From Candidatus Saccharimonadota bacterium (GTDB taxonomy: Archaea; Nanohalarchaeota; Nanosalinia; Nanosalinales; Nanosalinaceae), in contig CP012986.1 of assembly GCA_001761425.1 (NCBI GenBank), positions 30,001 to 62,000 on the forward strand: a DNA stretch of 32,000 nucleotides, given 5' to 3'. The position numbers and the translations under genes were made by a program. Of the stretch, positions 1 through 32,000 are shown piece by piece. Every line of letters begins with the position of its first letter. Within the stretch, counting starts at the first letter, position 1. The notes below the pieces were generated by a model. It saw only the letters and a program-made list of their open reading frames with translations, was not told the DNA's origin and did not search any database.

Positions 1-762
1 TGTGATGTCGTCGATGTCTCTTTCCACTCCTTCGTACGTGGATTCGACGGGTCTCAGGCCGTATTTGATTCCTATTTCGAGAGGTTTCAGTTCGTCTTTT
101 TCCTGTTTGAGCTGTTGGAAGGCCTGTTTTACTGTTTCCTGTTTCTGTTTGATTGTTTCCCATTCCTGGTAGATTTTCTGTGCTGTTGTCTGTATCTGCT
201 GGTCTATGAGTTCGCTGTTGTCCGGTAGGTGGTATTCTGTTTCTTCTACTGTTTTTTCACCGTTTTCTATTTTTCTCAGGTCTTCTAGGTAGTCTCTCAT
301 GGCGTGTATTTTCAGTTCTTTTCCTTCTCTGAGGCCTTCGAGTTCTTCAAGAGTGGCAGGTATATCAAGTTCGTGTTTTACGGGTTTGAGGCCTTTTTCC
401 TGTCTGTATCTCTGGTAGAGGTGTTCTGCTTCTTTCATTGCTGTGTTTTTCTCTGTGTCGAGGTGTTTTTTGTGGTCGAGAAGGTCTGGTTTGTGTGCTT
501 CAAGGCCTCTGTTTTCTCCGTAGTTCTTTTTTGTAGGGTTTTCCAGCGGTCTGAGCGTTTTTCGGAAGTTGGTGTTTTCTGCTTTGAAGTATACTCTTTT
601 CTTTGAGAGGTCTCTGTAGTCTCTGTGGAGCTGTTCTATTTCTTCTTCCGGTTCTCTGTCGTCTTGAAGGCTCTGTTCTACCTGTGTGATGGTTTCTGTG
701 AGCTGTTCTACGTGTTCTGCAGCTTCCTTGTTGAACTGGTCTATCTGTTCTTCTGGCTCCAC
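1..762 (-). CDS. hypothetical K/E/Q-rich coiled-coil protein; C-terminus lies beyond the window edge and the ORF is absent from the supplied track
   Basis: My translation of the minus strand is open from GTG 762-760 (VEPEEQIDQFNKEAAEHVEQLTETITQVEQ...) to position 1 (...LEIGIKYGLRPVESTYEGVERDIDDIT). An in-frame TAA lies at 790-792 just upstream. TTTTAAT/TTATAA TATA-like boxes sit 25-33 nt upstream. The sense strand has the same purine-rich composition as neighbouring genes. Confidence 0.5.
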   Translation of the reverse strand, partial: MEPEEQIDQFNKEAAEHVEQLTETITQVEQSLQDDREPEEEIEQLHRDYRDLSKKRVYFKAENTNFRKTLRPLENPTKKNYGENRGLEAHKPDLLDHKKHLDTEKNTAMKEAEHLYQRYRQEKGLKPVKHELDIPATLEELEGLREGKELKIHAMRDYLEDLRKIENGEKTVEETEYHLPDNSELIDQQIQTTAQKIYQEWETIKQKQETVKQAFQQLKQEKDELKPLEIGIKYGLRPVESTYEGVERDIDDIT

Positions 763-816
763 CGGTAGAAGTTTGTTGTGATTAAAATGTTATAATGTTC
801 TCTGGTGTACATGTTT

Positions 817-1158
817 CTAGTTCTGTTTTGTTACTTTCTGCAGTGTGTATGGGAAGTATGTGAGGCCTGTCATGCCTAGTGGGTAGAGTATTCGGGCTAA
901 TGTGGCTGCTGTGTTGTTTTCTGTTGCCATGCCGTAGATTTCGAGTGTGAAGATGAGGACGAGGATTAGGCTTGATGCTGCGAGTGTTTTGAAGGCCTTG
1001 AGTGCCTGGTCTTTGAGGAAGAATTTTGCTATGGCTGTTTCTCTGTCTTTTTCCATGTTTTTGACGATTCTGTAGTAGAAGATGGTCATGCAGAGATAGA
1101 TTGTTCCTCCTATTATCCCTAGTATTATGAATCCTGCGTTTACTGTGGCTTGTTCCAT
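817..1158 (-). CDS. small integral membrane protein (about 3 TM segments), function unknown
   Basis: 113-aa ORF with hydrophobic segments GFIILGIIGGTIYLCMTIFYY, LAASSLILVLIFTLEIYG and LYPLGMTGLTYF. It follows the stop of the preceding ORF by 1 nt. Confidence 0.5.
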   Translation of the reverse strand: MEQATVNAGFIILGIIGGTIYLCMTIFYYRIVKNMEKDRETAIAKFFLKDQALKAFKTLAASSLILVLIFTLEIYGMATENNTAATLARILYPLGMTGLTYFPYTLQKVTKQN

Positions 1159-1159
1159 T

Positions 1160-1480
1160 TTAGAATCGCCTCCACCATCTTGCCATTACTGTGATTGTTA
1201 CTGTTCCCTGGATTACTGTTACTGTTCTTCCTATCAGTATTCCTGTTTCTCTGAATCCCATAAACATTCCTGTGCCGAGTATGAGAAGGCCTAGGGCCTG
1301 TATTGCGTGGGCGTATGTCAGGGCCCTAAATTCTCTGTATGTTTTGTCTGTTTGAAGCCTCATCTTTGTCATGAATGTTTTACCTGATTCCTCGAGGCCT
1401 CTGTATATGAGAAGTGCTACTGTCCCTGCTACGGCTGTGACCGATGCCATCGATACTAGGAGCAGGTGGTATCCTTCCAT
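1160..1480 (-). CDS. small integral membrane protein, possible distant paralogue of 817-1158
   Basis: 106-aa ORF with segments LLLVSMASVTAVAGTVALLIY and AIQALGLLILGTGMFMGF. It has the same TM / amphipathic linker / TM layout as the downstream ORF. A TGTTATAAC TATA-like box lies about 22 nt upstream of the ATG. Confidence 0.5.
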   Translation of the reverse strand: MEGYHLLLVSMASVTAVAGTVALLIYRGLEESGKTFMTKMRLQTDKTYREFRALTYAHAIQALGLLILGTGMFMGFRETGILIGRTVTVIQGTVTITVMARWWRRF

Positions 1481-1550
1481 GAGATCATTTTTGGTTTCTG
1501 GAGTTATAACAGTTAAAAAAAGAAGAACAGAGACGAGTAGCTTCCTTCAG

Positions 1551-1736
1551 CTATGCCTGTTTCTCTGAGTAAGCTGTGAACGCCGATGAGAAAAAGCCCG
1601 CGAACGCGACTGCGTAAAGCGCCCATACCAGGTCATCAGTCGGGATTAACGTGCTTACAGCGTACGTTGCTATCACCGAGATGAACAGGGAAATGACAGC
1701 ATGTATCAGAACATCCTTTGCAACATCTTCGTCCAT
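1551..1736 (-). CDS. 61-aa two-TM membrane peptide, function unknown
   Basis: Hydrophobic ORF (VLIHAVISLFISVIATYAVSTLI, WALYAVAFAGFFSSAF). A TATA-like AAAAATATAAG (1761-1771) ends 24 nt before the ATG, matching the leaderless spacing seen at other operon-first genes here. Confidence 0.35.
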   Translation of the reverse strand: MDEDVAKDVLIHAVISLFISVIATYAVSTLIPTDDLVWALYAVAFAGFFSSAFTAYSEKQA

Positions 1737-1902
1737 GAAAAAGTTTTACAAAAAACTTAACTTATATTTTTCCCAACTGACTCTTTTTCTAGCTTTCTAC
1801 ATAAGGCCTGTCCAGGTTTCCTGTACCAGGGATTTTCTTCTGACATTTTCAAAAAGTTTCCCGGATGTAGTATCTGTGGTTCAAGGCCTGTCTGAAGGTG
1901 TT

Positions 1903-1913
1903 GAAAAAGGGGG
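1903..1913 (-). terminator. oligo-T tract after rpoD (CCCCCTTTTTC on the sense strand)
   Basis: T-run about 29 nt after the rpoD stop codon. Archaeal RNA polymerase terminates at oligo-T. Confidence 0.3.
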
Positions 1914-1941
1914 TTGAGGCCTTGGAGTAGGAAATGGGGGT

Positions 1942-2514
1942 TCAGTAGTTTTTGAGTTCTGTTTCGAACTCGTCTAGGTCTTTCTGTAGCTGTTCGATGG
2001 CTGCTTCGAAAAGTTCCTGGTTGCTGTATCCTGAGGTGGATTCGATTCTGAATTCGAATTCTCCTTCGCCTGTTTTTTCGTATCCGACTGTTCCGCCCTG
2101 GTGTTTGGCGTGTGTGTGTCCTGTCTGGAGTGTTGCGATTCCTTCGAGTGTTAGTTCCTGTCCTTCTTTGAGTTCGACGAGTAGTGTATCAGGGTTGACA
2201 GGTTCTGCTTCATCGTTGTCGGCTTTGATGTCTGATGCGTGGACTGGTCCCGGTCCTTCCTGTTGGACTGCGATGTGTACTTCGTCTTCTTTGTCCACGT
2301 TCTGTGGGATTGTCCATGGGATCTGTCCGATCCTGTTTGCGAGGATTTCGTCGAAGAGGCCTGATTCGTTCTGGTTGACGTAGATTTCCTTGATTGCTAG
2401 GGTAGGTACTTTGACCATCATTGCTCTTCTTAAGGTGTTGGCGATGGCTGAGTTTGAGTCTTCCAGTTTTACTTTTAGAACGTCTTCTGTTTCCTCGACT
2501 GTCTCGATGTTCAT
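1942..2514 (-). CDS. rpoD: DNA-directed RNA polymerase subunit D (Rpo3)
   Basis: 190 aa. The N-terminus ...SNSAIANTLRRAMMVKVPTLAIKEIYVNQNESGLFDEILANRIGQIPW is the alpha-like dimerisation motif. The gene follows S13-S4-S11, the conserved archaeal order. Confidence 0.85.
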   Translation of the reverse strand: MNIETVEETEDVLKVKLEDSNSAIANTLRRAMMVKVPTLAIKEIYVNQNESGLFDEILANRIGQIPWTIPQNVDKEDEVHIAVQQEGPGPVHASDIKADNDEAEPVNPDTLLVELKEGQELTLEGIATLQTGHTHAKHQGGTVGYEKTGEGEFEFRIESTSGYSNQELFEAAIEQLQKDLDEFETELKNY

Positions 2515-2557
2515 TGTGGTAACCTCTTCGAAATTGGAAAGATAAAAACTGCAGAGA

Positions 2558-2941
2558 TTATACTCTGCGTCCTCTTTTACCGCCTTTCTCTCTGCATCCG
2601 TCGTGCGGTACAGGTGTAACGTCCTCGATATTTCCTACTTCGAGGTCGCTCCTTGAGATTGCTCTGATCGAAGGCTGTGCGCCTTTACCCGGCATCTTCT
2701 GCTTCTGTCCACCTGGAGCTCTTACACGGATGTCAACTTTTTCGATCCCTTTCTCCTGTGCCTGCTGGGCTGCCTGTTTAGCTGCCTTCATAGCTGGGAA
2801 AGCGGATCCTTGGAGTCGTCCTTTGTCCGTTGTCATACCAGAAGTGATCCTGGCAAGAGTTTCAGCTCCTGTAGCGTCCGTAAGATGGACGATGGTGTTG
2901 TTGAAGCTGGAGTAGACATGAACTATTCCTTTCTTGACCAT
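2558..2941 (-). CDS. rps11: 30S ribosomal protein S11 (uS11)
   Basis: GIVHVYSSFNNTIVHLTDATGAETL... and ...DVTPVPHDGCR are typical of uS11. Position in the operon is conserved. Confidence 0.95.
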   Translation of the reverse strand: MVKKGIVHVYSSFNNTIVHLTDATGAETLARITSGMTTDKGRLQGSAFPAMKAAKQAAQQAQEKGIEKVDIRVRAPGGQKQKMPGKGAQPSIRAISRSDLEVGNIEDVTPVPHDGCREKGGKRGRRV

Positions 2942-3492
2942 TATTCGTCACCTCCTTCATCTTCTGATTCCTCAGAGTCCTGTGACTCTTCTTCTGTAGT
3001 ATCGTTTTCCTCTTCAACTTCTTCCTCCGGTTCAGGCCTTCTTACTTCCAGGTTCTTTTCTTCCTGCTTGGTTAGAAGGTAGCCTGGAACGTTAACTCTC
3101 TGTCCATCTACGTAGACGTGTCCATGGACTACAAGCTGACGTGCTTCGTTCACCGTATCAGAATAGCCTCTCCTGTTGACAGCTGTCTGAAGTCTCCTGT
3201 CCAGAAAGTCTGTAACATTAAGTGTGAAAAGATCCTCAAGCTCTGCGTTGCCCTTAACAAGGCCTATATCGTGGGCTCTCTGCTTGATATCATTTACCGC
3301 TTCAGAATCGTCTTCTTCCGATACGAGTTCCCTTGCTTTTCTTCTGAAGCTTCTGAGCTGGCTCTGGGCCTTGTAGATTTCCTTCTTGTTGTTGAGACCG
3401 TATTCTTCTGTTAGCTCCTCTTCTCTCTGGATGCGTTCTTCGCTCCATCCTTCGTTCGGGGTCTCGTACGTCTTCTTAAGTTTCTTTACCAT
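2941..3492 (-). CDS. rps4: 30S ribosomal protein S4 (uS4) with a short acidic C-terminal tail
   Basis: S4 domain RRLQTAVNRRGYSDTVNEARQLVVHGHVYVDGQRVNVPGYLL. The last ~30 aa are EEEVEEENDTTEEESQDSEESEDEGGDE. Confidence 0.93.
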   Translation of the reverse strand: MVKKLKKTYETPNEGWSEERIQREEELTEEYGLNNKKEIYKAQSQLRSFRRKARELVSEEDDSEAVNDIKQRAHDIGLVKGNAELEDLFTLNVTDFLDRRLQTAVNRRGYSDTVNEARQLVVHGHVYVDGQRVNVPGYLLTKQEEKNLEVRRPEPEEEVEEENDTTEEESQDSEESEDEGGDE

Positions 3493-3506
3493 TATCGAAG
3501 CACCTC

Positions 3507-3989
3507 TTATTCCTCATCCTCGGAAGTGCCTTCTGAGGCCTCTTCCTGGATCCTTGCTCTGGATACTCCGATCTTGCTTCCAGATCTGAATGAGGATTTT
3601 GTCTTCTGACCTCTTACAGGGAGGCCGATTTCGTGTCTCCAACCTTTGTAAGACCCGATTTCTTTGAGTCTTCTGATGTCGAACTCTTCCTTGAGTTCGA
3701 GGTCGGATTCGATCAAGTGTGTATTTTCTCCAGTCTCTCTGTCCTTTCTGCGGTTTCTAAGCCAGTCAGGGACGTCAAGCTGGTCCGGGTTCTTGATAGC
3801 TTCTTCTATGTCATCTATTTCTTCTTCGCCTAGGTCTCCTATCTTCTTTTCTTCGTAGCCGAGGCCTTCTGCAACTGCATTAGCGTACATCGGTCCGACT
3901 CCTTTCAGTGCTGTGATAGCTTTGCTTACCGGCTTCGTACCGTCGATACCGGTTCGTGCGATCCTTACGACTTCTTTTGTCTCTGACAT
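3507..3989 (-). CDS. rps13: 30S ribosomal protein S13 (uS13)
   Basis: MSETKEVVRIARTGIDGTKPVSKAITALKGVGPMYANAV... I moved the start to ATG 3989. The 24 extra codons in the track ORF show no similarity and would run into the TATA box. Confidence 0.9.
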   Translation of the reverse strand: MSETKEVVRIARTGIDGTKPVSKAITALKGVGPMYANAVAEGLGYEEKKIGDLGEEEIDDIEEAIKNPDQLDVPDWLRNRRKDRETGENTHLIESDLELKEEFDIRRLKEIGSYKGWRHEIGLPVRGQKTKSSFRSGSKIGVSRARIQEEASEGTSEDEE

Positions 3990-4023
3990 GTTCAAACCCG
4001 TAACAGAATCATCTTTGTTAAAT

Positions 4024-4034
4024 CTTATAAAGGG
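4024..4034 (-). promoter_or_regulatory. BRE/TATA-like box of the S13 operon (CCCTTTATAAG on the sense strand)
   Basis: Lies about 35 nt upstream of the rps13 ATG. It has the same CCC+T/A-box form as the S17 and L3 operon promoters. Confidence 0.4.
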
Positions 4035-4183
4035 TTGACTCAGGCCTAGTAACTTAACCATAAGTCGTTTAGTAGAATTGCGTCCAACAGGGAGAAAAGG
4101 TCAAGAAGAGAAATGAGGCCTCCTCACTTCAAATAAAAGAAAAAATTACCGTTCGTCCTCTTTCTTGGTAACTAAAAGGAAGA

Positions 4184-4468
4184 CTATCTTTCGTCTTCCT
4201 TTTTGATTAGATGCCAGCCGAATTCTGTTTTTACAGGGTCGGAGACTTCGCCTACATCCATTTCGAAGGCCTTTTTTTCGAACGGTTTTACCATGTCTCC
4301 GCGTCCGAAGAATCCGAGGTCTCCTCCGTTGTCCCCGGAAGGGCCTTCGCTTTTTTCTTCTGCCAGGTCTGCGAAGCTTTTACCGCTTCTTTCTAGCTCG
4401 AGTTTGATCTGTTTGGCGTGTTCTTCGTTGTCTACGAGGATGTGTCTTGCTCGGACTTCGTCGCTCAT
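4184..4468 (-). CDS. parvulin-type peptidyl-prolyl cis-trans isomerase
   Basis: 94 aa: RARHILV...SEGPSGDNGGDLGFFGRGDMVKPFEKKAFEMDVGEVSDPVKTEFGWHLIK, the PpiC/parvulin rotamase signature. Confidence 0.8.
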   Translation of the reverse strand: MSDEVRARHILVDNEEHAKQIKLELERSGKSFADLAEEKSEGPSGDNGGDLGFFGRGDMVKPFEKKAFEMDVGEVSDPVKTEFGWHLIKKEDER

Positions 4469-4567
4469 ATCTTTTGTTGGAGGCCTTGTTTTTCTTATCT
4501 ATTCGGGTGCTGGAGAAGTCTTTTCAGAAATTATTTAATTTTCTATAGCTGAAGCGTAGAAAAGGCC

Positions 4568-4729
4568 TAGCCCCCCCAGGATTCGAACCTGGGTCAGGGG
4601 ATGACTTCACCCCGAAGATCAGAGATCTTCTATATCCTCATCCCTGAGGATTTGAGGTTCCAAAGTCCCCTATCATTAGCCGCTCCGAGTCTAACTCAGA
4701 TAGAGCTTTGACCACTAGACCAGGGGGCT
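4568..4729 (-). tRNA. tRNA-Gln(UUG) with two introns: D-arm ~4676-4707 and anticodon loop 37/38 ~4603-4659
   Basis: Hand fold of the sense strand: AGCCCCC TG GTCT AGTGGTCAA [32 nt] TGAT A GGGGA CTTTGG [57 nt] A TCCCC TGAC CCAGG TTCGAAT CCTGG GGGGGCT A. The acceptor stem is 7 bp, and the T-arm and anticodon stem pair perfectly. No CCA is encoded. Confidence 0.8.
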
Positions 4730-4746
4730 GTACCCAAGGGTTGGAA

Positions 4747-4761
4747 TTTTATTCTTAAAAA
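4747..4761 (-). promoter_or_regulatory. TATA-like box for tRNA-Gln(UUG) (TTTTTAAGAATAAAA on the sense strand)
   Basis: Spans -32 to -18 relative to tRNA nucleotide 1 (a purine). Confidence 0.4.
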
Positions 4762-4862
4762 CCAACATTGTAGGCGGCATATGCTAGTTTTCTGTTATCC
4801 TGTATTCGTCGAACCTGTCAACAAACTGGGTCGTAAACAGTTTGTTACGTTCGAGTAAAGAA

Positions 4863-4869
4863 TTTTAAG
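4863..4869 (+). promoter_or_regulatory. TATA-like box (TTTTAAG) for the 4892 gene
   Basis: Starts 29 nt before ATG 4892, consistent with a leaderless transcript. Confidence 0.35.
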
Positions 4870-4891
4870 TTTGAGGCCTTACTGGTTTTTT

Positions 4892-5512: not shown

Positions 5513-5842
5513 TTACTGGGGTGAGGGAGGCCTGACACTGAGTTTTTCGGGGTCTGCTGCTGCTATCCGTGCCTCGGAAAAATTTGTTTCTATTGCTTCC
5601 AGCCATTCGCCGTAGACCTTGTTGTTGAATTCCAGAGTTGATACGTCGGTGTAGACTGAAGAATCCAGTGCTGGCTTATACCTGCTCTCAGAGGATTTGA
5701 GGAAGTAATCCAGTTTCATCGAACCTTTTTCTTCATCGTATCTCGGAGAGACCACCATGCCTAAATTCGATTCCTCGATGCCGAAAGCCTGCATAAAGTT
5801 CTCTATACTTTCTATACAGCTTTCTATATTGTCGTCATACAT
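5513..5842 (-). CDS. hypothetical acidic protein (109 aa)
   Basis: ATG ORF preceded by GGAGG about 15 nt upstream and a TAATATATTT box. I recognise no family. Confidence 0.5.
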   Translation of the reverse strand: MYDDNIESCIESIENFMQAFGIEESNLGMVVSPRYDEEKGSMKLDYFLKSSESRYKPALDSSVYTDVSTLEFNNKVYGEWLEAIETNFSEARIAAADPEKLSVRPPSPQ

Positions 5843-5970
5843 CTTGTCCCTGATTGCCTCCTTCCTTTGAATAAAAAAAGACGCTAAAATATATTAACCG
5901 TTATTACAGCCCTTTGTATAGCCTATGGTAAACATGGAGGAAAAATCTGTCGGAGAAAAAGAGACTTTTT

Positions 5971-6076: not shown

Positions 6077-6100
6077 TTACATCACAGTCGTGAAAGCCAA

Positions 6101-6110
6101 TTGTTAAAAA
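6101..6110 (-). promoter_or_regulatory. TATA-like box for tRNA-Gln(CUG) (TTTTTAACAA on the sense strand)
   Basis: Spans -34 to -25 relative to tRNA nucleotide 1. Confidence 0.4.
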
Positions 6111-6687: not shown

Positions 6688-8112
6688 TTGAAGCTTTCCA
6701 GGATTTCTGTTCCTTACAGGGCGTTGAAGCATAACGGTACTTTGCTGGCATTGGTTTTTCTCTCCGGTAATATTTCTTTGGAGGCCTCTAATTTTCGTTT
6801 ATTGTTTTTCGCCTCTCTAGGTTTTACCGCGGTTGTTCTTATTTCTCTTCTGTGGGAGTATCTGGTCTGGAGGCGGTATGATTACTTTTTCGAGGATGAT
6901 AGTTTGAGGATAACTCAGGGCGTTTTCAGGAGAGATGAACGCGAGATACCGTACAGGAGGATACAGAACGTGGATATAGAGAAAAATATTTTTCAGAGAG
7001 TTTTCGGTATAGCCAGAGTCGATTTCGAGACTGCAGGAGGTTCATCTACCGAGGCCTCATTCAGATTCGTGGAGGGTGAAGAGGCCAGAAATATCCAGGA
7101 AAGAGTGAGGAAGTTCAAGAGAGGAGAGGACAGGGAAGATGGGGGAAAGGATAGGGAGAAGCTTTTAGAGCTCTCAAGCTCCGATTTACTGGCTTACAGC
7201 TTTCTCTCGGTCAACACACAGGCCTTGATCATTGCGTTTACAGTCTTCGGCATCTTCGGGGGTATGGGAACAGGCCTTGTAGAAAGCTCTCTGGCACCTG
7301 TAGTCGTGCTGACGTTCCTGGGCCTTACCTCGGTGATAGGTCTCTGGACATTCAACGCCTTCTCTAACTTTGTAAAGTACTATGATTTCAGGCTGTGGCG
7401 TGAAAGAGATACCCTGGAGTATGAGAGAGGTCTCCTGAACCGTTCAGAAGGTTCTATCCCTGTAGAAAAAGTTCAGGGCGTCTCTATCGAGGAAAACTTC
7501 CTGAAGAGACAGCTGGGCTATGCGACGATGAAGGTAGAGACCGCAGGCCTTTCAGACGGACAGCAGTTGAAGAGTAACATGGTAGCTGTGCCTCTTGCAA
7601 AGTACAGTTCTGTTCTGGATTTCGCTCAGGACCTTGAACAGTTCAACTCTCCTGATATGAATTCCATATCTTCAAGAGCCAGGAGAAGATATTTCGGACA
7701 GTACAGCATTATTCTAGGCCTTGTCCTGTTGCTCGGTATCGGAGCGGATACTTACGTAAGGCCTTTCAATTACCTGTTTATCTTTGCTTTCGTGCCTCTA
7801 GCTGTAATCGGGGCGCATCTGAAATGGGTTAACAGAGGTTTCGAGGCTCAGGAGGATTATTTCATTTCGATGAACGGTTTCTGGACCCGTAGAACTTCTA
7901 TAACTCCTTATTACCGGGTTCAGAACCTTATTCAGACTGAGACGGTTTTGCAGAGGCGCTGGAATCTTTCGACTCTAACAGTGGATACTGCTGGAAGTCT
8001 TATCATGAGTGATTCGCGGGCTGTCGATGTGGATGTGAAAAAAGCTGTAAAGTTGAGGGAGGAAGTATTTGAGAGGTTCAAGAAGGCCTTGGATGAGAGT
8101 AAGAAGTCCTAG
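6688..8112 (+). CDS. YdbT-like membrane protein with three bPH_2 domains
   Basis: TTG start. Three repeats of the same pattern: LRITQGVFRRDEREIPYRRIQNVDIEKNIFQRVFGIARVDFETAG, LEYERGLLNRSEGSIPVEKVQGVSIEENFLKRQLGYATMKVETAG and FISMNGFWTRRTSITPYYRVQNLIQTETVLQRRWNLSTLTVDTAG. TM pairs lie between the repeats. Confidence 0.75.
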   Translation: MKLSRISVPYRALKHNGTLLALVFLSGNISLEASNFRLLFFASLGFTAVVLISLLWEYLVWRRYDYFFEDDSLRITQGVFRRDEREIPYRRIQNVDIEKNIFQRVFGIARVDFETAGGSSTEASFRFVEGEEARNIQERVRKFKRGEDREDGGKDREKLLELSSSDLLAYSFLSVNTQALIIAFTVFGIFGGMGTGLVESSLAPVVVLTFLGLTSVIGLWTFNAFSNFVKYYDFRLWRERDTLEYERGLLNRSEGSIPVEKVQGVSIEENFLKRQLGYATMKVETAGLSDGQQLKSNMVAVPLAKYSSVLDFAQDLEQFNSPDMNSISSRARRRYFGQYSIILGLVLLLGIGADTYVRPFNYLFIFAFVPLAVIGAHLKWVNRGFEAQEDYFISMNGFWTRRTSITPYYRVQNLIQTETVLQRRWNLSTLTVDTAGSLIMSDSRAVDVDVKKAVKLREEVFERFKKALDESKKS

Positions 8113-11419: not shown

Positions 11420-12007
11420 TCATTGCTTCGCTTTCTGGTATCTGTCTCTGATCTCGTTGAACAGTTGTTTTCCTTTCAGTGTGGTTATTCTTGGTTCGGT
11501 GGTTGCGAAGAATTCGTCCAGGTTTTCGTATTCCTGGAAGTTTTCGTTGTCTTCTTCCGGATCGTACCTGTTTTCTTTTTCGTATTTCACGGCCTGGAGA
11601 CACATGTCGATCATGTCCAAGTCCTTGACGAACTTTGCTTCATCGGTTTCATGTTCCTCGTATTCCATCCAGATTTCGTCTAATTCTTCTCCGAGAAGGC
11701 CTGAAAGCTTTTCCACAGCTTCTTTTTCCATTTTTTCTTTCTCTTCTTTTTCTATTTCCTGTTTATCGTCTATTTTTCTGGTGACGAAGTCTCCTGTCTC
11801 CGCCTCCGCAATATCATGGATTAGAGCCATTTTCAGAGCTTTTTCCTCATTTATACCTACTTCCTTGCTGTAAACCAGTGTGAGAAGTGCGACACCCCAT
11901 GAATGGTCTGCTACGGTTTCAGGGTCTTCGATATTTCTGAGCTCCCAGCCTGTTCGTTTCTCGTCTTTCAGGTTCAGGGCAGTGAGGAGGCCTTTGATCT
12001 CTTTCAT
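11420..12007 (-). CDS. HD-domain phosphohydrolase (YfbR-like 5'-deoxynucleotidase family)
   Basis: ...KRTGWELRNIEDPETVADHSWGVALL...ALIHDIAEAETGD carries the H..HD..D metal-binding motifs. Confidence 0.8.
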   Translation of the reverse strand: MKEIKGLLTALNLKDEKRTGWELRNIEDPETVADHSWGVALLTLVYSKEVGINEEKALKMALIHDIAEAETGDFVTRKIDDKQEIEKEEKEKMEKEAVEKLSGLLGEELDEIWMEYEEHETDEAKFVKDLDMIDMCLQAVKYEKENRYDPEEDNENFQEYENLDEFFATTEPRITTLKGKQLFNEIRDRYQKAKQ

Positions 12008-12606
12008 TACTGTTTTGCCTCCGTTAGGAAGTTCATTATTGTGGTTTCTGAGACTTCTGCTCTGTTTACCTGTTTTATCTCCAGGCCTTTTTCTTCGAGC
12101 AGTTTTCTGGCTTTTTCCTCGCTTATTAGATACTGTTTGACTTCGCTTCCGTATCTTTCCCTGATGAAGGTTCCTTCTCCAATCTTGAAGCTGGCGTAGA
12201 GTGTTCCTTCATCTTTGAGTACTCGTTTGAGTTCTTTGAGGACTTCCTGCATCTCTTCTGGAGGGAAGAAGTGCATGACTGTGTTGCACCAGACTCCTTC
12301 GAACTTTTTGTCTTGGAATTCGAGGTTTTTGATGTCCATGACTCTGAAATGGCCTTTCTTGTTCTCTTTTGCGTGTTTTATCATTCCTTCGGCCAGGTCT
12401 ACTCCTGTTGCGTCGAGGCCTTTTTCTGTGAGGTATTCTGTGTCTCTTCCTGGTCCGCATCCTGCGTCCAGTGCTTTTCCGTTCCCGATTTTTTCTGTAA
12501 AGGTGTCAAGAAGATCTGTGTAGGCCTCTGGCATTTTTTCGATACTGTATTTTTCTGCGAACTGTTCTGCTCCTTTGCTGTAGAATTTTTCAGGCCTTTC
12601 TGTCAT
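12007..12606 (-). CDS. class I SAM-dependent methyltransferase
   Basis: ALDAGCGPGRDTEYL is motif I. I set the start at ATG 12606, because the longer track ORF would overlap the end of cbf5. The stop overlaps the HD gene start by 1 nt. Confidence 0.8.
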   Translation of the reverse strand: MTERPEKFYSKGAEQFAEKYSIEKMPEAYTDLLDTFTEKIGNGKALDAGCGPGRDTEYLTEKGLDATGVDLAEGMIKHAKENKKGHFRVMDIKNLEFQDKKFEGVWCNTVMHFFPPEEMQEVLKELKRVLKDEGTLYASFKIGEGTFIRERYGSEVKQYLISEEKARKLLEEKGLEIKQVNRAEVSETTIMNFLTEAKQ

Positions 12607-14457: not shown

Positions 14458-14496
14458 ATAAAACAGGGGAGAATTGGGGAGGCCTTTTTTCCCCTG
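14458..14496 (-). terminator. hairpin plus T-run after secY
   Basis: On the sense strand, CAGGGGA-17 nt-TCCCCTG is followed by TTTTAT, starting a few nt after the secY stop. Confidence 0.35.
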
Positions 14497-22089: not shown

Positions 22090-22491
22090 TTACACCACCT
22101 GTGATGCGATTTTTCCGATCGGGCTGAACCTCTGGACTACTTCTTTTGCGATAGGGCCTTTGGTTACCGATCCTTTTGGAAGAAGGTTTTCTTCTTCGAC
22201 GAGGACTGCTGCGTTGTCCTCGAATTTTACTCTGAGGCCTTCAGGCCTCTGGTATTCTTTTGCCTGTCTTACGATGACGGCGTCGAAGACCTGGTGTTTT
22301 ACTTCTTGGTCTCCTTTCAGTACTTTTACTTTGACAATGTCTCCGACTCCTGCGGAGTTTCTTCTGGAACGTCTTCCTTTCTGGCTTCTGACTCCGATGA
22401 CTTTCAGTTTTTTTGCTCCGGAGTTGTCTGCACATGTAAGCTCTGCTCCGATGTCCAGTGTTCTGGTGATATTGGCTCCCAGTGGCTTCAC
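22090..22491 (-). CDS. rpl14: 50S ribosomal protein L14 (uL14)
   Basis: ...IGAELTCADNSGAKKLKVIGV... GTG start overlaps the S17 stop by 1 nt. Confidence 0.95.
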   Translation of the reverse strand: MKPLGANITRTLDIGAELTCADNSGAKKLKVIGVRSQKGRRSRRNSAGVGDIVKVKVLKGDQEVKHQVFDAVIVRQAKEYQRPEGLRVKFEDNAAVLVEEENLLPKGSVTKGPIAKEVVQRFSPIGKIASQVV

Positions 22492-22826: not shown

Positions 22827-23057
22827 TGTTCTGTTCACCTATGTTGTTGTACAAACCTTCCACAGGAAAGACAGCTTCTGGATTCCCGACCATCAGGCCT
22901 TCAGGTAGAGAAGAGAGCATCAAACACAAGCGGTTTTTCATAGCTCTCCACCCGAAGTATCGATCCACGCACTGGAAATCCGGACAATGGATTTCAAGGC
23001 CTGAAACCGACTTCAAGCGGTCAAGGGGAAAAAACTCGGTCTTTCCCTTCAAGGTCT

Positions 23058-23094
23058 GTACCCATGAAAACGAAGCTAAACTTTAAAAGGGTGG
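23058..23094 (-). promoter_or_regulatory. promoter of the S17-to-SecY operon
   Basis: On the sense strand, CCACCCTTTTAAAG, then 8 nt, then TCGTTTTCATGG (23062-23073), then GTAC. The architecture nearly matches the L3 promoter at 29240-29276. Confidence 0.55.
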
Positions 23095-23160: not shown

Positions 23161-23625
23161 ATGTTACAGGGTACAGGCCTTGCGGTACATGGTTACAGTA
23201 GGTATGTGGATGAGGAGGCTTTCAGAGACGCAGGCCTAGAGATAGCAGATGAAGTGCCTGTATACGGGATTGAGGCCTCACACAAATCTCAGGGCCTTAC
23301 CGGTGATTTCTATGAGGATACTTTCGGGGAGATAGAACACGGTAGAAACGGTGCGGTGGCTTCAGACGATCTTGAAGGCCTTGAAGAGCCTTTCTATGTC
23401 TTTGGAGGTCTGGTAAGTGAGTGTGTTCCCGGTGCGGTCTATTCTGTCCAGAAATCTGGTTTTGAGGCCTATGTCATGGAAGATGCATCTTTCGAGAAGG
23501 TTGAGGATGATTTCATGACCTATGATGAGATGAAGGCCTCTGACAGGGATTTTGGAGAGGTATTTGATAATCTGGGGTGGCTGGGTGTGCCGACTTTGAC
23601 TTTGGATGAGCTTGTTGAGAAATAA
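23161..23625 (+). CDS. hypothetical acidic protein; C-terminal half weakly resembles the isochorismatase/cysteine-hydrolase fold
   Basis: ATG 23161; the track uses TTG 23146. FYVFGGLVSECVPGAVYSVQKSGFEAYVMEDAS resembles the G-x-x-x-x-x-CV...G-(F/Y)-x-V-x-V-x-x-DA motif. The canonical N-terminal DxQxxF strand is not evident. Confidence 0.5.
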   Translation: MLQGTGLAVHGYSRYVDEEAFRDAGLEIADEVPVYGIEASHKSQGLTGDFYEDTFGEIEHGRNGAVASDDLEGLEEPFYVFGGLVSECVPGAVYSVQKSGFEAYVMEDASFEKVEDDFMTYDEMKASDRDFGEVFDNLGWLGVPTLTLDELVEK

Positions 23626-26284: not shown

Positions 26285-26296
26285 TTTCTAGTTCAC

Positions 26297-27001: not shown

Positions 27002-27013
27002 GTAGTATCACCT

Positions 27014-27283
27014 TTACATCATTCCCAGTTCGGTCGCTACGTCCATTGCGTCGTCACTTTCTGACAAGCGGACGTAGGCCTTTTTCTGGGCCTGTGGTGT
27101 GACGTTTGTGTTGACTTTTTTAACCGTCACATTGAACAGGGTTTCTACTGCGTCTTGGACTTCTCCTTTGTCTGCGTTGAGGTCTACTATGAGAACGATT
27201 TTGTTCTCTCTGTCGATCTGGTCCATTGCCTGTTCTGTCATGTGAGGGTTTTCGATTACATTCCATGCTTCGTCGTCGTTCAT
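27014..27283 (-). CDS. rpl23: 50S ribosomal protein L23 (uL23)
   Basis: ...ENKIVLIVDLNADKGEVQDAVETLFNVTVKKVNT... Operon position is conserved. Confidence 0.92.
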   Translation of the reverse strand: MNDDEAWNVIENPHMTEQAMDQIDRENKIVLIVDLNADKGEVQDAVETLFNVTVKKVNTNVTPQAQKKAYVRLSESDDAMDVATELGMM

Positions 27284-27349
27284 TATCGAAACTCACCTGT
27301 GAGTTTCTGGTAATCCATAAAATCTTTGATTTTGGTCATTTGGTTCCAC
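27284..27349 (-). repeat. intergenic paired-hairpin spacer (L4 to L23)
   Basis: On the sense strand, AAAATC-AAA-GATTTT (27319-27333), linker ATGGATTACCA, then GAAACTCAC-AG-GTGAGTTTC (27288-27307), then GATA-ATG. Confidence 0.75.
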
Positions 27350-28108
27350 CTAGTGGTAGAGGCCTTCCTCATCTAGTTTTTCGATTGATTTTTCGCTCCA
27401 GACTACAAGTCTGCCTGGCTCTGCTCCTGGTGCTAACTTTTCTGCGTTCAGTTGGTCGACTCTTGAAACGTCGACTCCCTGAAGGTTGTTGGCTGCCTGG
27501 AAGATTCCGTTGTCCTCTGCTACTACGAGTAGAGGCCCGGTTTTTCTGACGTATTTTCTTCCACGGTTGCGTCCTTTGCCAGCTCTTACCTTTTTCTGGC
27601 TGATTCTGTCAAGCTCGTCTTCAAGGCCTTTTTCTTCAAGTCTTTCTTTGAGTTCCTGTGTCTTTTCGATCTCTGAAAGGCCTTCTTCTACTAGTGGAAG
27701 GTCTCCTTCGTAGTTGTGTTTTTCAGAGACAAGTTCTTCCTTTGTGGTTGCCGTGATTGCTGATCTGATTGCTTTTCTGCGTTCTTTTTCGTTGATGTCT
27801 TCCTCAAAGTCTTTCTCTGCTTTCGGAGGATGTGCTCTGCGTCCGCCACGTGTGTTCGGTGCTTCTGCTCCTTCCCCAAACAGTTGCATTCCTCTTGCAG
27901 TCCTGATTTTTCGTGGGGTTCTTGCTCGGCCTTTTCCTTTTGCGCTTCTGTAGCTTCTGCGTCTTTTTCTCCATCTTACGACGTGTTTGAGACCTGCGTC
28001 TGTTTCTGATCCGTAGTCCTGTCTCTTCTTGGATTTGATGGAGAGATTGGCTCTTTTGACTATGTCAGGCCTTACTCTTTCGTTGAACTGGGTTGGTAAA
28101 TCTGTCAT
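27350..28108 (-). CDS. rpl4: 50S ribosomal protein L4 (uL4)
   Basis: 252 aa: ...RQDYGSETDAGLKHVVRWRKRRRSYRSAKGKGRARTPR...GRRAHPPKAEK... Confidence 0.93.
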   Translation of the reverse strand: MTDLPTQFNERVRPDIVKRANLSIKSKKRQDYGSETDAGLKHVVRWRKRRRSYRSAKGKGRARTPRKIRTARGMQLFGEGAEAPNTRGGRRAHPPKAEKDFEEDINEKERRKAIRSAITATTKEELVSEKHNYEGDLPLVEEGLSEIEKTQELKERLEEKGLEDELDRISQKKVRAGKGRNRGRKYVRKTGPLLVVAEDNGIFQAANNLQGVDVSRVDQLNAEKLAPGAEPGRLVVWSEKSIEKLDEEGLYH

Positions 28109-28120
28109 TATCTGGTCACC

Positions 28121-29092
28121 TTATTTTTCGATGTGTGTGATTTCTGGGTTTCCTGGGTTTTCGTCTGATCTGAGTGCTGTTCTCAGTCGGATCAGTCTTT
28201 CAGATGGTCCTGGAACACTTCCTTTAACGAGGATGTAGTTTGTCTCTACTTCTCCGTATCCGCTGAATCCTCCTTCTCTCTGGACTGTATCAGGGTTCTG
28301 AGAATGACTCATGATTCTTTTGTTGTGTTCTGTCCTGTTGTTGTATCCCTGCTGTCCTGGCAGTGGGATTCTCCAGCTTAGCTGGTCTGGATGCCATGGA
28401 CCGACGTTTCCGGCTTTTCTAACTTTTTTCTGTGTCTTGTGGTCCAGTGTCTTGATTCCGTATCTCTGGACAGGTCCTTCAACTCCTTTTCCTTTTGTGA
28501 CGCCGATGACATCGCTGTATTCTCCTTCCTCGAAGACGTCTGAGAACTCGATCTGTTTTCCGATCATCTCTTCTGCGTATTCAAGTTTTTCTTCAACTGA
28601 TCCTCCAAGGCCTAGTTCAAAGTTCGCTGGCTTTTTCTTAGAGACACCTGCTTCCTGAGGCTGGGTGTGGACAAGAAGCTTCACGTCACTGAGATCTTCG
28701 CTGTTTTCCTTCGCCTTCTCCAGGTTATCCATGTTTCCCTCTTTTGGAATGTCTGTTGCTCTCTGGAGCTCTGGTGCAGGAGATTCTGTCCAGGCCTCTG
28801 TGAAGACCTGTTTTCCTGAGTTCCTGTCCTCTGTGTAGAAACGTGCTCCGTAGACACGTAGTGGAGGAGCTTCTAGTATTGTAACTGGTTCAGCGACTTC
28901 CTGCCCCTGAGTTGCTCCTTCTGTATCGTCGATAGTGAGGACTCTGGTCATTCCGACCTTGTATCCTGCGTATCCTAGAGGTTTTAGTTCGTCTGTGTCT
29001 TCCCATGTACGTACATCTGGGTAAATCCTTTCCGCCCTTGTCTTGGGCTTGAATCCCAGTGATCCGCTTCTTGATCTATTCTTGTCTGCCAT
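28121..29092 (-). CDS. rpl3: 50S ribosomal protein L3 (uL3)
   Basis: MADKNRSRSGSLGFKPKTRAERIYP...GYKVGMTRV...GVTKGKGVEGPVQRYG... I moved the start to ATG 29092. The 38 upstream codons of the track ORF lie in the leader. Confidence 0.93.
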   Translation of the reverse strand: MADKNRSRSGSLGFKPKTRAERIYPDVRTWEDTDELKPLGYAGYKVGMTRVLTIDDTEGATQGQEVAEPVTILEAPPLRVYGARFYTEDRNSGKQVFTEAWTESPAPELQRATDIPKEGNMDNLEKAKENSEDLSDVKLLVHTQPQEAGVSKKKPANFELGLGGSVEEKLEYAEEMIGKQIEFSDVFEEGEYSDVIGVTKGKGVEGPVQRYGIKTLDHKTQKKVRKAGNVGPWHPDQLSWRIPLPGQQGYNNRTEHNKRIMSHSQNPDTVQREGGFSGYGEVETNYILVKGSVPGPSERLIRLRTALRSDENPGNPEITHIEK

Positions 29093-29239
29093 TGTAATCG
29101 TTTCTCCTATAGGCCTCAAAAATAGAGGCATAGATGTGTTAAAGCTTTCAATAATCCAGTTGAATCTAGTCGATGAAAGCTCTCTCACCAGAGGCCCACT
29201 CCACAAGAGTCGGCTTGTCCCCTCAAGAAAACTCGAAGG

Positions 29240-29276
29240 GTAACCATGAAAACGAGACCAAGTTTTAAATAAGGGG
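29240..29276 (-). promoter_or_regulatory. promoter of the L3-to-SUI1 operon
   Basis: On the sense strand, CCCCTTATTTAAAAC, then 7 nt, then TCGTTTTCATGG (29244-29255), then TTAC. The implied 5' leader to the L3 ATG is about 150 nt. Confidence 0.55.
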
Positions 29277-29332
29277 TGACAGGTAGGTGAGAAAACTACA
29301 CTGTAATATAATGGGAAAAGGAGGAAAGAGGT

Positions 29333-30751
29333 TTAGCCCTTGATATTCACTACAGGCCTCAAACGGGCGACTTTCTCGCCGATACCGAGTTCGTCGGAAA
29401 TTTTGATGACTTCGTCTACGTCTTTGTAGCTGCCTGGTGCTTCTTCTGCGATCGTCGAGCCTGAAGCCGCTTTGACGTAGATTCCTTCACGTTTCAGGTC
29501 GTCCTGGACGTCTCCGCCCCAGTAATCCTGTTTCGCCTGTGTTCTTGACTTTAGTCTTCCTGCGCCGTGGGCTGTAGATCCGAAGGAAAGGCCTGGAGAG
29601 TTTTTTCCGCCGGAGAGGATGTAGCTGGAGGTTCCCATGCTTCCAGGGATGAGTACTGGCTGGCCGACTTCAGAGTAAACTTCGGGGACTTCTTCTCTTC
29701 CTGCTGGCATTGCTCTTGTCGCGCCTTTCCTGTGTACAAGCAGTTCTTTGTCTTCTCCGTCTACTTCGTAGGTTTCCTCTTTAGCGATGTTGTGGCAGAC
29801 GTCGTAGAGAAGTTCTGAATCAAACTCTTCGAACAGGCGTTCCATGGAGTGTCTGATAGCTTCTGTGATCGCCTGTCTGTTTGCCCATGCAAAGTTTGCA
29901 GCAGCGTACATCGCATAACGGTAGTCATCCGCCAGTTCGTCTCCGATAGGAGCATAGATCAATTCTTTATCAGGAAGTTGGTCCACGGTTTCAGTGTATT
30001 CTTTCTCGAAGTCTCTCAGGTATTCAGTACATGTCTGGTGTCCGAGGCCTCTACTCCCGGAATGTATCATTATCACGATCTGGTTTTTTTCAAGACCGAA
30101 GGCCTTGGCTTTTTCCTCTTCGAAGGTTTCTTCTACTTTCTGTACTTCGAGGAAGTGGTTTCCTGATCCGAGGCTTCCGACCTGTTTGAGGCCTCTCTTT
30201 TTAGCGTCTTCCGGGACTTTTTCTGGCTTTCCTGGAAGCCTCCCATTTTCCTCGCATCTTTTGAGATCGCTTTCCTTGGCGTGGCCGTTTTGCAGCATCC
30301 ATTCAGCTCCTTTTTCAAGAATTTCTTCAAGATCTTCTTTATCGACGTCGATGTAGCCTCCTTTGCCGAGTCCGCACGGTACTTTGTCGAAGAGGATATT
30401 TGCGATTTGTTCCTCTTTTCCCTTGATATCGTCGTATTTGAGCGAGGTTTTGAGGACTCGTACGCCACAGTTTATGTCGTAGCCGATTCCTCCAGGACTT
30501 ATTACGCCGTTTTCCATGTCTATGGCTGCGACTCCTCCGATTGGGAAGCCGTAGCCCTGGTGTCCGTCGGGCATGACGATCGAGTGTTTCTGGAGGCCTG
30601 GCAGGGTTGCCACGTTTTTGATCTGTTCTAGTGTATCGTCTCCTTTGATCTCTTCCAGCAGTTCTTCGTTTGCGTAGATCCTGGCAGGTTTCTTCATCTT
30701 TCCTTCTTTCGGGATCTCGTAGATATTTTCGGATACTTTGTTGAGTTCCAT
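29333..30751 (-). CDS. rtcB: RNA-splicing ligase RtcB
   Basis: ...MPDGHQGYGFPIGGVAA..., GGIGYDINCGVR, GSGNHFLEVQ, HSGSRGLGHQ and HGAGR are the conserved RtcB metal- and GMP-binding motifs. Confidence 0.95.
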   Translation of the reverse strand: MELNKVSENIYEIPKEGKMKKPARIYANEELLEEIKGDDTLEQIKNVATLPGLQKHSIVMPDGHQGYGFPIGGVAAIDMENGVISPGGIGYDINCGVRVLKTSLKYDDIKGKEEQIANILFDKVPCGLGKGGYIDVDKEDLEEILEKGAEWMLQNGHAKESDLKRCEENGRLPGKPEKVPEDAKKRGLKQVGSLGSGNHFLEVQKVEETFEEEKAKAFGLEKNQIVIMIHSGSRGLGHQTCTEYLRDFEKEYTETVDQLPDKELIYAPIGDELADDYRYAMYAAANFAWANRQAITEAIRHSMERLFEEFDSELLYDVCHNIAKEETYEVDGEDKELLVHRKGATRAMPAGREEVPEVYSEVGQPVLIPGSMGTSSYILSGGKNSPGLSFGSTAHGAGRLKSRTQAKQDYWGGDVQDDLKREGIYVKAASGSTIAEEAPGSYKDVDEVIKISDELGIGEKVARLRPVVNIKG

Positions 30752-30919
30752 ACCTGGTATTTGGCAGGGAAAGTTTACAAGTATGGTAGAGATCGCCTTT
30801 TGAATCTGACTTAGTCTTCTTGCTTCTCTACCGATAGGTTTGCAGAGTTTGCCTGGAGATCCTGCGGAAAGTTTTGGACAAGTTAAAGAGAAAAATGAGA
30901 GGGAAACAGTTTGGGAGGC

Positions 30920-31150
30920 CTAGGTTCGGCGGTCTGTCCAGTCTTCGGGCAGAAGGCCTATGATTAGTAGTATTGCTCCGAGTGTTGCTCCTGCGAGACT
31001 GAGTGACTTTATTAGAGGCCAGTCCATGTCTTCACCTGATATTACGTCTTCTGCCTGGGATGCTAGGTCCTGTTGGTCCTGTGCGTAGGTGTAGCCGAAA
31101 AGGCCTATTACTAGGAGTACTGCGCCGATTACAGCGAGTTCTGTTCTCAT
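30920..31150 (-). CDS. 76-aa two-TM membrane protein, function unknown
   Basis: LAVIGAVLLVIGLFGYTY and LSLAGATLGAILLIIGLL flank an acidic loop. Confidence 0.45.
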   Translation of the reverse strand: MRTELAVIGAVLLVIGLFGYTYAQDQQDLASQAEDVISGEDMDWPLIKSLSLAGATLGAILLIIGLLPEDWTDRRT

Positions 31151-31215
31151 TGTGGGTTCTTACCTCTGTAAACAAGAGGTAGTTAGATACAGAAACCGTT
31201 TGTTGCAGTAAGAAA

Positions 31216-31626
31216 CTATATATCCAGTACTGCCTGTAAAACCCATTTGCCGTCCTCGTGGTCGACTTTCATCTCGCTGTAGGTGGGGGCCTTGATATCG
31301 AGGAGTGCCATCTCATCGCTGATGTTGTCGACGACAATCTTCGCGGTCAAGCGGTGGCCTTCATCCGTATCCTCTATCTCAAGCTCTTCTGCGGACGAGA
31401 CGACGACACCTTCAGTATCCTGAAGGAATATCAGTTCGTCCAGGAAATCAAAAAGCAGAGGTTCATATCCCTCTGACTCGACCTCGATGTCATGGTGGTA
31501 CATGCCTCCTTCACCGCCGACGATCTCGGAGAAGGCCTCCACTGCATCGGAGAACGCCTTCTCTATGGTTTCTCCTTCTGTTCTGAACTTTTCGTCTGCC
31601 GGATGCTCAAGTATCTCGTAGCTCAC
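31216..31626 (-). CDS. archease (RtcB activator family)
   Basis: (M)SYEILEHPADEKFRTEGETIEKAFSDAVEAF... and C-terminal ...IKAPTYSEMKV match archease. GTG start. Confidence 0.8.
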   Translation of the reverse strand: MSYEILEHPADEKFRTEGETIEKAFSDAVEAFSEIVGGEGGMYHHDIEVESEGYEPLLFDFLDELIFLQDTEGVVVSSAEELEIEDTDEGHRLTAKIVVDNISDEMALLDIKAPTYSEMKVDHEDGKWVLQAVLDI

Positions 31627-31680
31627 CCTGTCTCACCCGTAAGTTGAGCGATCTCATAAATTTTTAGTCCTCGGCTCATC

Positions 31681-32000
31681 TTACTTTTCCTCAAACCTGT
31701 TTGGGAACTGCTCCTTCAAGGCCTTTTTGACCAGGCCCTGCTGTTTTCCTATACTCATCTCAGTGTTGTCGATTATCAGGTCGTACATTTCAAGGTCTTT
31801 GACGTCTATGCCGTAGTAGTTGCTGTAGCGTTCCTTGTTATCTCTGTCGCGTTTTTTGATTTTTTTCTTGACTTCTTCAACGTCTGTAATTTGTTCCTCA
31901 GCTTTTCTCTGACCTTCTTCAAGATCTCTGGCAGTCCTGCGCGCTCTTTCCTCGAGATCAGCCGTCACATAGATCCTGAAATCACTGTATGTTCCAAGCA
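31681..32000 (-). CDS. cmk: cytidylate kinase, archaeal type (N-terminus beyond the window edge)
   Basis: The frame stays open past the track start to position 32000 (...LGTYSDFRIYVTADLEERARR...RDRDNKERYSNYYGIDVKDLEMYDLIIDNT). This pattern is typical of archaeal CMP kinases. Confidence 0.7.
   Translation of the reverse strand, partial: LGTYSDFRIYVTADLEERARRTARDLEEGQRKAEEQITDVEEVKKKIKKRDRDNKERYSNYYGIDVKDLEMYDLIIDNTEMSIGKQQGLVKKALKEQFPNRFEEK

Follow-up and report, generated by a model that had tools for sequence, protein, structure and literature searches.

The stretch of DNA analyzed here, called the window throughout, is a 32-kb portion of a 1.1-Mb nanohaloarchaeal (DPANN) contig, and our subject is the six-base palindrome AGGCCT, which is scattered through its whole length (1..32000; 123 sites with a mean spacing of ∼260 bp). 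The window is a ribosomal-protein/SecY/RtcB region, with Pfam matches to SecY, Cbf5/TruB, RtcB, and the ribosomal proteins S3, L3, L4, and L24. Judged by RtcB, the closest genomes are Nanohaloarchaeota (best, 82–89% amino acid (aa) identity), and the best match in a metagenome scan with the same protein, in a collection that lacks the source contig, was 86% identical in aa. Flanking DNA was obtained from Joint Genome Institute metagenome 3300010222, in whose contig Ga0136257_100001 (1,125,078 bp) the window occupies positions 28,963–60,962; the same sequence is present in a Logan assembly of SRR2630167. The extended stretch with called genes measures 49.9 kb and runs from window coordinate −9183 to 40751 (8.7 kb on the left and 8.75 kb on the right). 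Codon shuffles and the first occupancy counts used a 41-kb stretch with called genes, and later counts used the 49.9 kb. The analysis covers 49.9 of 1,125 kb (∼4% of the genome), plus the orthologous loci of relatives, which were sampled around rtcB from genomes and metagenomes and which, being orthologous, are not mutually independent.

Abundance and placement of AGGCCT

The window contains 123 exact copies of AGGCCT, compared with 6.66 ± 2.78 (maximum 14) in 100 dinucleotide-preserving shuffles of the same sequence; a preliminary description of this DNA had estimated ∼120 copies and called them over-represented. Because AGGCCT is its own reverse complement, each site lies on both strands. 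It is the most frequent of all hexamers in the window, and the runner-up among palindromic hexamers, TTCGAA, has 24 copies. The claim that roughly two-thirds of GGCC tetramers sit between A and T also held up, with 123 of 185 (66%) in that context and the other flank combinations at 1–15 each (among the single-flank variants, GGGCCT 15, TGGCCT 9, and CGGCCT 4 on one side; AGGCCG 7, AGGCCA 5, and AGGCCC 4 on the other). Markov models of order 0 to order 4 predict 5.9, 6.6, 21, 54, and 113.5 copies, respectively, and the excess over the order-1 expectation is 18.6-fold. The preliminary description had proposed a maximal-order Markov model as a check, and formally the order-4 figure of 113.5 does reproduce the count. 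That figure is circular, being AGGCC (139) × GGCCT (151)/GGCC (185), where the two pentamers consist 88% and 81% of the motif itself, and it therefore does not refute the enrichment, which stands. All that the order-4 agreement means is that, once the GGCC core is given, the flank of one half-site hardly depends on that of the other.

A synonymous-codon shuffle, the other check that had been proposed, was performed within each gene (n = 500) and keeps both the proteins and the motif-inflated codon usage. It gave 29.6 ± 4.6 coding sites (maximum 44) versus 155 observed in 41 kb, and shuffling the order of codons gave 12.6. Coding sites occupy phase 0 (AGG CCT, Arg-Pro) 16 times, phase 1 (xAG GCC Txx) 51 times, and phase 2 (xxA GGC CTx, X-Gly-Leu) 88 times, against synonymous-shuffle expectations of 3.8, 7.0, and 18.7; each phase is thus 4–7 times above its own shuffle, and the enrichment is not confined to one phase or dipeptide. 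All three phases can be seen within a single gene, as had been pointed out: the bPH_2 gene at 6688–8112 carries, on the plus strand, a phase-1 site at 6782..6787 (gAG GCC Tct, Glu-Ala-Ser), a site of the commonest class, phase 2, at 7272..7277, and a phase-0 site at 7759..7764. The codons used are not the preferred ones. Gly-Leu dipeptides are written A|GGC|CTN in 88 of 125 cases despite the predominance of GGA (482) over GGC (267), and Arg-Pro is written AGG CCT in 16 of 24 cases despite the predominance of AGA (372) over AGG (133). Sites stand in frame within the conserved ribosomal and RtcB proteins.

Spacers are enriched as well. Strictly intergenic DNA in the 49.9-kb stretch holds 16 sites in 5.08 kb versus 0.77 expected (∼21-fold), and site density is ∼4.0/kb in coding DNA versus 3.2/kb in spacers. 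Base frequencies at −8..−2 and +2..+8 are near background, so that there is no shared flanking sequence beyond ±1; a dispersed repeat or miniature mobile element is ruled out by this lack of extended common flanks.

Relatives, proteins, and fine anatomy of the sites

AGGCCT is abundant in some relatives and scarce in others. At least 14 distinct nanohaloarchaeal loci carry 2.5–5.1 sites/kb; these motif-positive loci include L001 (NHA29), L002 (Ca. Nanosalina sp. VS9-1, a complete genome), L015, L022, L045, L204, L207, L222, and L226. About 27 nanohaloarchaeal loci are at 0.5 sites/kb or lower, and L005 (1.6), L019 (1.2), and L032 (1.0) are intermediate. Pooled density is 3.81/kb in 206 kb of motif-positive loci versus 0.21/kb in 341 kb of motif-negative ones, and in haloarchaeal and bacterial loci AGGCCT occurs at expectation. 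In an RtcB tree (neighbor-joining, single gene, unbootstrapped), the positives fall into at least two clades, with the negative L063 nested among positives, next to L002. L063 and L002 share 80% nucleotide identity and have 0.27 and 3.9 sites/kb, respectively; of the 25 sites in L002, only 3 read AGGCCT in L063, the main difference being C4>A, i.e., GGC to the preferred GGA. L002 and L001 (77% nucleotide identity) have 30 of 51 sites in common. Across relatives at ∼66% aa identity, 45–75% of sites are shared, with 0.82 observed versus ∼0.71 predicted from independent saturation. The only close pairs among motif-positive loci, L204/L256 (13 mismatches, one gap of 1 nt) and L254/L221 (92.5% identical over 3.2 kb), offer too few events for polarizing gains and losses. 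Judging from these sequences, the trait appears to switch on or off over ∼20% divergence with few intermediates, pointing to one factor that is gained or lost. Restriction–modification genes are described as patchily distributed in Halobacteria (PMC6471742).

We defined peptide-compatible positions as those where the encoded residues allow AGGCCT: Arg-Pro; [KEQ]-Ala-[FLSYCW]; and any residue with an A-ending codon followed by Gly-Leu. AGGCCT occupies 154 of 212 such positions (73%) in 41 kb and 176 of 245 in 49.9 kb, whereas in motif-negative nanohaloarchaeal orthologues occupancy is 0–12%; in the intermediate genomes (L019/L218, L005, L032, and L037) it ranges from 0.16 to 0.50. The residues beneath window sites are conserved in motif-negative relatives as much as the rest of the protein, and compatible peptides that stand at window sites are written as AGGCCT in 97 of 118 cases in positive relatives versus 19 of 202 in negative ones. 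Taken together with the excess of every phase over the synonymous shuffle and with the spacer enrichment, this upholds the earlier proposal that the force is exerted on DNA and not through selection on proteins or codons: a process particular to the genome targets the DNA word as such and fills ∼73% of tolerated coding positions, as well as spacers.

The proteins themselves have also been affected. Compatible peptides number 14–16 per 1000 aa here versus 8–10.6 in all 14 motif-negative orthologue sets, and 16–24 in five of seven sets from motif-positive relatives (11.5 in L008, a small set with nine positions). Since compatible peptides are ∼1.5 times denser than in motif-negative relatives, AGGCCT has shifted amino acid sequences toward them too. 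The force on the word prevails over codon preference and displaces protein sequences, and close relatives lack it. In L019, occupancy is 0.27 yet compatible peptides are dense (17 per 1000 aa); this could be a protein-level fossil of a lost trait.

The word is closer to R-AGGCCT-Y, where R is a purine and Y a pyrimidine. Inside the motif, the third base of the Leu codon, where the choice is purely synonymous, gives a CTY:CTR ratio of 87:11 versus 546:419 elsewhere (P = 5e-11), and of 17 intergenic sites, 14 have R at −1 and 14 have Y at +1. The flank preference is weaker in relatives (65% R versus 52% in negatives). Comparing the pooled positive with the pooled negative loci, variants that keep the GGCC core (NGGCCT/AGGCCN) stand at 1.5–3.7x and inner-position variants at 0.8–1.1x. 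The neighbors with T for C are not depleted (AGGTCT/AGACCT 0.81x; AGGCTT/AAGCCT 1.12x). Residual one-off variants at compatible positions are mostly transitions (C4>T 11, T6>C 8, and C5>T 4 of 29). AGGTCT is the commonest of them, and AGGACT is nearly gone (2 versus 88) though GGA is the main Gly codon; the AGGTCT:AGGACT ratio at compatible positions is 9:2 here versus 19:33 in motif-negative relatives. Spacers hold 11 one-off variants versus 15.8 expected.

Close neighbors exclude each other. Compatible positions 9–30 bp apart are both occupied in 2 of 16 pairs here (8.3 expected; binomial P 0.0013) and in 14 of 48 pairs in 13 positive relatives (24.4 expected; P 0.0019), whose genes were approximated by long open reading frames (ORFs) for this count; combined with the source genome, P is 2e-5. 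A first, smaller orthologue-based sample had given no short-range exclusion (12 of 24), and past 30 bp there is no effect. Two other spacing patterns were considered and dropped. A pair excess at 76–90 bp, which would have suggested periodicity, consists of the same orthologous pairs counted in many loci, and an under-dispersion over 41 kb (coefficient of variation 0.80), which would have suggested even spacing, vanishes once a site-free S-layer gene is counted (1.06). Our spacing claim is limited to the exclusion below 30 bp.

That S-layer gene (L284:14260-16665; window −5506 to −3101; 2.4 kb, 801 aa) has no AGGCCT, two GGCC, and four compatible peptides, and its adjoining paralogue has 12 of 14 compatible positions occupied. 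From this pattern, the site-free gene is probably a recent import or replacement in which the word has not yet been acquired.

Among individual sites, 4116..4121 is one of six strictly intergenic ones in the window; the others are at 4481, 4874, 11402, and 14480 (14480..14485, 16 nt 3′ of the secY stop codon), together with an ORF-less site at a tRNA 3′ end (4563). The last (4563..4568) overlaps the discriminator, or last, base of an intron-bearing tRNA gene on the minus strand (4568–4729), as the preliminary description had reported; its assignment to tRNA-Gln is less secure. The identity of this 162-nt gene with its long intron is ambiguous: ARAGORN by default recognizes only the 3′ 85 nt, as tRNA-Arg(TCT), and with introns allowed it recognizes the full gene as Leu(TAG); the loop CUUUGGA would also permit Gln. 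The intron resembles a C/D-box small RNA (a weak SNORD52-like Rfam match, 16.6 bits, E = 0.84), for which the haloarchaeal tRNA-Trp intron is a precedent. Two sites cited earlier as lying in leaders or spacers are less clear examples: the one given at 22899 is at 22895, and both it and the one at 22997 lie inside a called 81-aa ORF (22841–23086). The closest pair in the window, 8 bp apart, spans 22235..22248; such near pairs are rare. The densest gene is a 154-aa ORF on the plus strand (23161..23625) with six sites in 465 bp. Neither it nor the 22841–23086 ORF (also plus) has a Pfam match, and both are embedded in the ribosomal-protein cluster in the opposite orientation. A minus-strand gene (12007–12606), flanked by the Cbf5 gene and an HD-domain gene, encodes a 199-aa class-I S-adenosylmethionine-dependent methyltransferase (Methyltransf_11/25, TehB-like); this enzyme has no DNA-methyltransferase motifs and is of a generic small-molecule or RNA type.

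Other sampled sequences showed excesses of a different kind. High-GC haloarchaeal loci have CTCGAG (L038/L242, L049, and L061) or GTCGAC (L237, L238, L052, and L039) at 3–5 times the order-1 expectation (for example, 46 versus 9 and 79 versus 19 expected), likely Leu-Glu and Val-Asp codon-pair effects. Contigs of a viral collection were screened as possible motif-rich elements (three copies within ∼100 bp), and the only dense matches among those listed were tandem repeats. These repeats, L197:6700-8430 (73-bp units carrying AGGCCTAGGCCT) and L201:14110-14890 (90-bp units), are unrelated to the dispersed enrichment.

Possible causes of the enrichment

Our tentative preference, held at a little under even confidence, is that some of the Nanohaloarchaeota have in AGGCCT, or better R-AGGCCT-Y, a highly iterated palindrome similar to highly iterated palindrome 1 (HIP1) of cyanobacteria, with a reader gene as its switch. 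This gene would encode a protein that recognizes the palindrome through two AGG half-sites about the GGCC core. The likeliest candidate is a cognate solitary cytosine methyltransferase, perhaps of StuI- or HaeIII-like specificity, given that the word is patchily distributed, favors its GGCC core, and has a parallel in HIP1. Sites might be held at about one per 250 bp through genome-wide use of the methyl mark, as in marking self DNA or the parental strand; alternatively, repair or recombination biased toward the marked word might keep them up. Newly arrived DNA would gain the word only slowly, and a site-free S-layer gene beside a paralogue with 12 sites is as expected for recently imported DNA. 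A set-point density would accord with the similar densities of coding DNA and spacers and with the short-range exclusion. Enzymes that modify AGGCCT specifically have been described (AgGCcT in Alcanivorax; PMC12128166), and active Dcm-like methyltransferases occur in nanohaloarchaea, whose methylation is reported to extend even to the DNA of the host (PMC10266531, PMC11001535). We regard as possible, if doubtful, a bolder form of this proposal, in which archaea have independently evolved a second highly-iterated-palindrome system, the AGGCCT arrays, toggled by a single transferable gene (a methyltransferase or another reader) whose mark is used genome-wide; the mark might serve in telling the cell's own DNA from that of the haloarchaeal host it feeds upon, or in guiding repair.

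Several points weigh against the preferred explanation. The methyltransferase, its key component, is purely what we infer, and so is methylation of the sites. No gene for a DNA methyltransferase (PF00145), Vsr, or a Mig-like T:G glycosylase is among the called genes in 49.9 of 1,125 kb, and none was returned by motif regular-expression and Pfam scans of the sampled nanohaloarchaeal loci. A search with M.HaeIII for GGCC-type methyltransferases returned, among the 120 matches listed, proteins 73–99% identical, of which the few named ones are bacterial. Sites common to several lineages are accounted for if each lineage saturated the same conserved peptides on its own, and are no proof of selection; the short-range exclusion could reflect just counterselection of 6-bp GC hairpins, or slippage where copies are close; and the sample is 4% of one genome together with orthologous loci that carry overlapping information.

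A different way to keep about one site per 250 bp would be selection for an array of binding sites of an abundant nucleoid-associated or chromosome-organizing homodimer, without any methylation. Much of the anatomy suits it: the palindrome has two half-sites whose flanks are almost independent given the core (139 × 151/185 ≈ 123), information declines toward the word edges, coding DNA and spacers are similar in density, and the range of mutual exclusion, 30 bp, is the size of a footprint. A nucleoid role is also what Xu et al. favored for HIP1 (PMC5861425). We nevertheless consider such an array unlikely, because a switch at only 20% divergence would mean that a core chromatin protein had been gained and lost repeatedly, no candidate protein was identified, and the exclusion has the simpler explanations given above. 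A signal for uptake or recombination, comparable to the DNA uptake sequence (DUS) and uptake signal sequence (USS) or to Chi, would instead spread by molecular drive, word-bearing DNA being preferred, and would drag protein sequences with it. The occurrence in all frames and at tolerant positions and the shifted proteome resemble the usual descriptions of USS, the trait is lineage-specific, and a probably imported gene is without the word. Against this, a palindrome of 6–8 bp at 3.8–4.1/kb is too short for specificity and does not have the form of DUS/USS, and the 49.9-kb region read contains no uptake genes; we rate this signal as distinctly unlikely.

Pure very-short-patch repair, in which a C5-methyltransferase and a Vsr- or Mig-type enzyme would convert T:G in near-cognate words to C:G, had been the lead mechanism of the preliminary description, and it fits poorly. 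There are said to be precedents in E. coli Dcm/Vsr, acting on CCWGG, and in Mig.MthI, and the predominance of transitions among residual variants is consistent with frequent C>T loss at the word. The substrates of such repair, the T-for-C neighbors, are not depleted, however, and the 9:2 ratio of AGGTCT to AGGACT, versus 19:33 in negatives, runs counter to the expectation for a T>C-specific sink. Transversion and two-change variants are nearly absent too, and protein sequences have changed; removal of AGGACT needs an A>C transversion, which is beyond T:G repair. Spacers retain most of the expected one-off variants (11 versus 15.8), and the 18-fold effect is far above that reputed for CCWGG in E. 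coli. On this evidence we hold the mechanism, taken alone, to be improbable. Least credible of all, to the point of being negligible, is a by-product of codon, dipeptide, or amino acid usage or of a repeat or mobile element bearing AGGCCT. The concentration of 57% of coding sites in one phase (Gly-Leu) and the maximal-order Markov expectation could be cited in its favor, the latter only by way of a circular calculation. Codon, dipeptide, and repeat-element explanations are rejected by the shuffles (30 versus 155 sites, with every phase far above its own expectation), by the 21-fold enrichment of spacers, and by the lack of conservation beyond ±1; moreover, the motif is built on the minor codons GGC and AGG, and orthologues have the same residues without the word.

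Comparison with known palindromes and DNA words

A literature search, of incomplete coverage, found no report of AGGCCT over-representation in any genome or in connection with nanohaloarchaea. Enzymes that read and methylate exactly this six-base word exist, as in StuI-type systems (AGG^CCT), for example in A. borkumensis, where 1674 sites are present (PMC12128166). With a genome size of ∼3.1 Mb, this amounts to ∼0.5 sites per kb. Such restriction sites are usually avoided or neutral, whereas here the word is near saturation; type II recognition words of the StuI type are expected at or below compositional expectation, and AGGCCT is 18-fold enriched. StuI would cut these genomes every ∼250 bp unless they were modified.

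DUS and USS are non-palindromic 9–12-mers, present about once per kb and recognized by a competence receptor. The DUS of Neisseria and USS of Haemophilus are like AGGCCT in being dispersed and frame-independent, in lying at protein-tolerant places with a measurable effect on proteins, and in having lineage-specific dialects. They differ in being longer, non-palindromic, and about four times sparser, and no competence system was seen in the nanohaloarchaeal region read.

Very-short-patch repair by Dcm/Vsr reportedly leaves a mild excess of CCWGG in E. coli, and the T:G glycosylase Mig.MthI is said to be encoded beside the GGCC methyltransferase M.MthTI on plasmid pFV1. In both systems, as with AGGCCT, the frequency of a methylation-related palindrome is raised by a DNA-level process, and the archaeal pFV1 case has the same GGCC core. 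The nanohaloarchaeal array departs from Dcm/Vsr in its undepleted T-for-C neighbors, its near absence of transversion variants, and its much larger effect, and the 49.9 kb read contains no Vsr, Mig, or methyltransferase gene of the kind required.

The closest known class is that of the highly iterated palindromes of cyanobacteria. To our knowledge, the factor responsible for HIP1 has not been identified in about 25 years. Sister genomes differ in state, and a comparison of gene content together with a methylome could name the responsible factor, with VS9-1 serving as the positive strain with a complete genome. AGGCCT is also a source of bias in codon and dipeptide statistics and a possible marker for binning and for spotting imported genes.

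AGGCCT shares three descriptive features of the HIP1 class, namely over-representation, dispersal through all frames and noncoding DNA, and deviants biased to the outer positions. HIP1 (GCGATCGC; PMC4390886, PMC5861425) is, like AGGCCT, a GC-rich palindrome enriched by at least an order of magnitude (15–300x for HIP1 and ∼18x here), found in all reading frames and in spacers, and not part of a longer repeat. In both, one-letter deviants concentrate at the outer positions around the core of a possible methyltransferase site, a pattern that Elhai 2015 tied, for HIP1, to an internal methyltransferase site (PMC4390886). In both, some relatives are without the word. Orthologous HIP1 sites are common to related genomes; for AGGCCT, independent saturation predicts nearly as much sharing as is observed. 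Each of the alternate cyanobacterial palindromes co-occurs with a matching methyltransferase (PMC4390886), whereas for AGGCCT the cognate enzyme is one that we only infer. Other differences are that AGGCCT occurs in DPANN archaea; that it has a 6-bp core with degenerate R/Y flanks rather than being an 8-mer; that it reaches ∼4/kb versus the ∼1/kb quoted for HIP1; and that it switches on and off between genomes only ∼20% diverged. A 10–90-kb periodicity reported for HIP1 lies beyond the 50-kb scale of the present data.

Hyper-abundant palindromes are known from cyanobacteria in the form of HIP1, and their origin and function are contested between biased repair and selection; the same choice arises for AGGCCT. 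AGGCCT looks like an independent case, in another domain of life and in the very small (∼1.1 Mb) genome of a symbiont.

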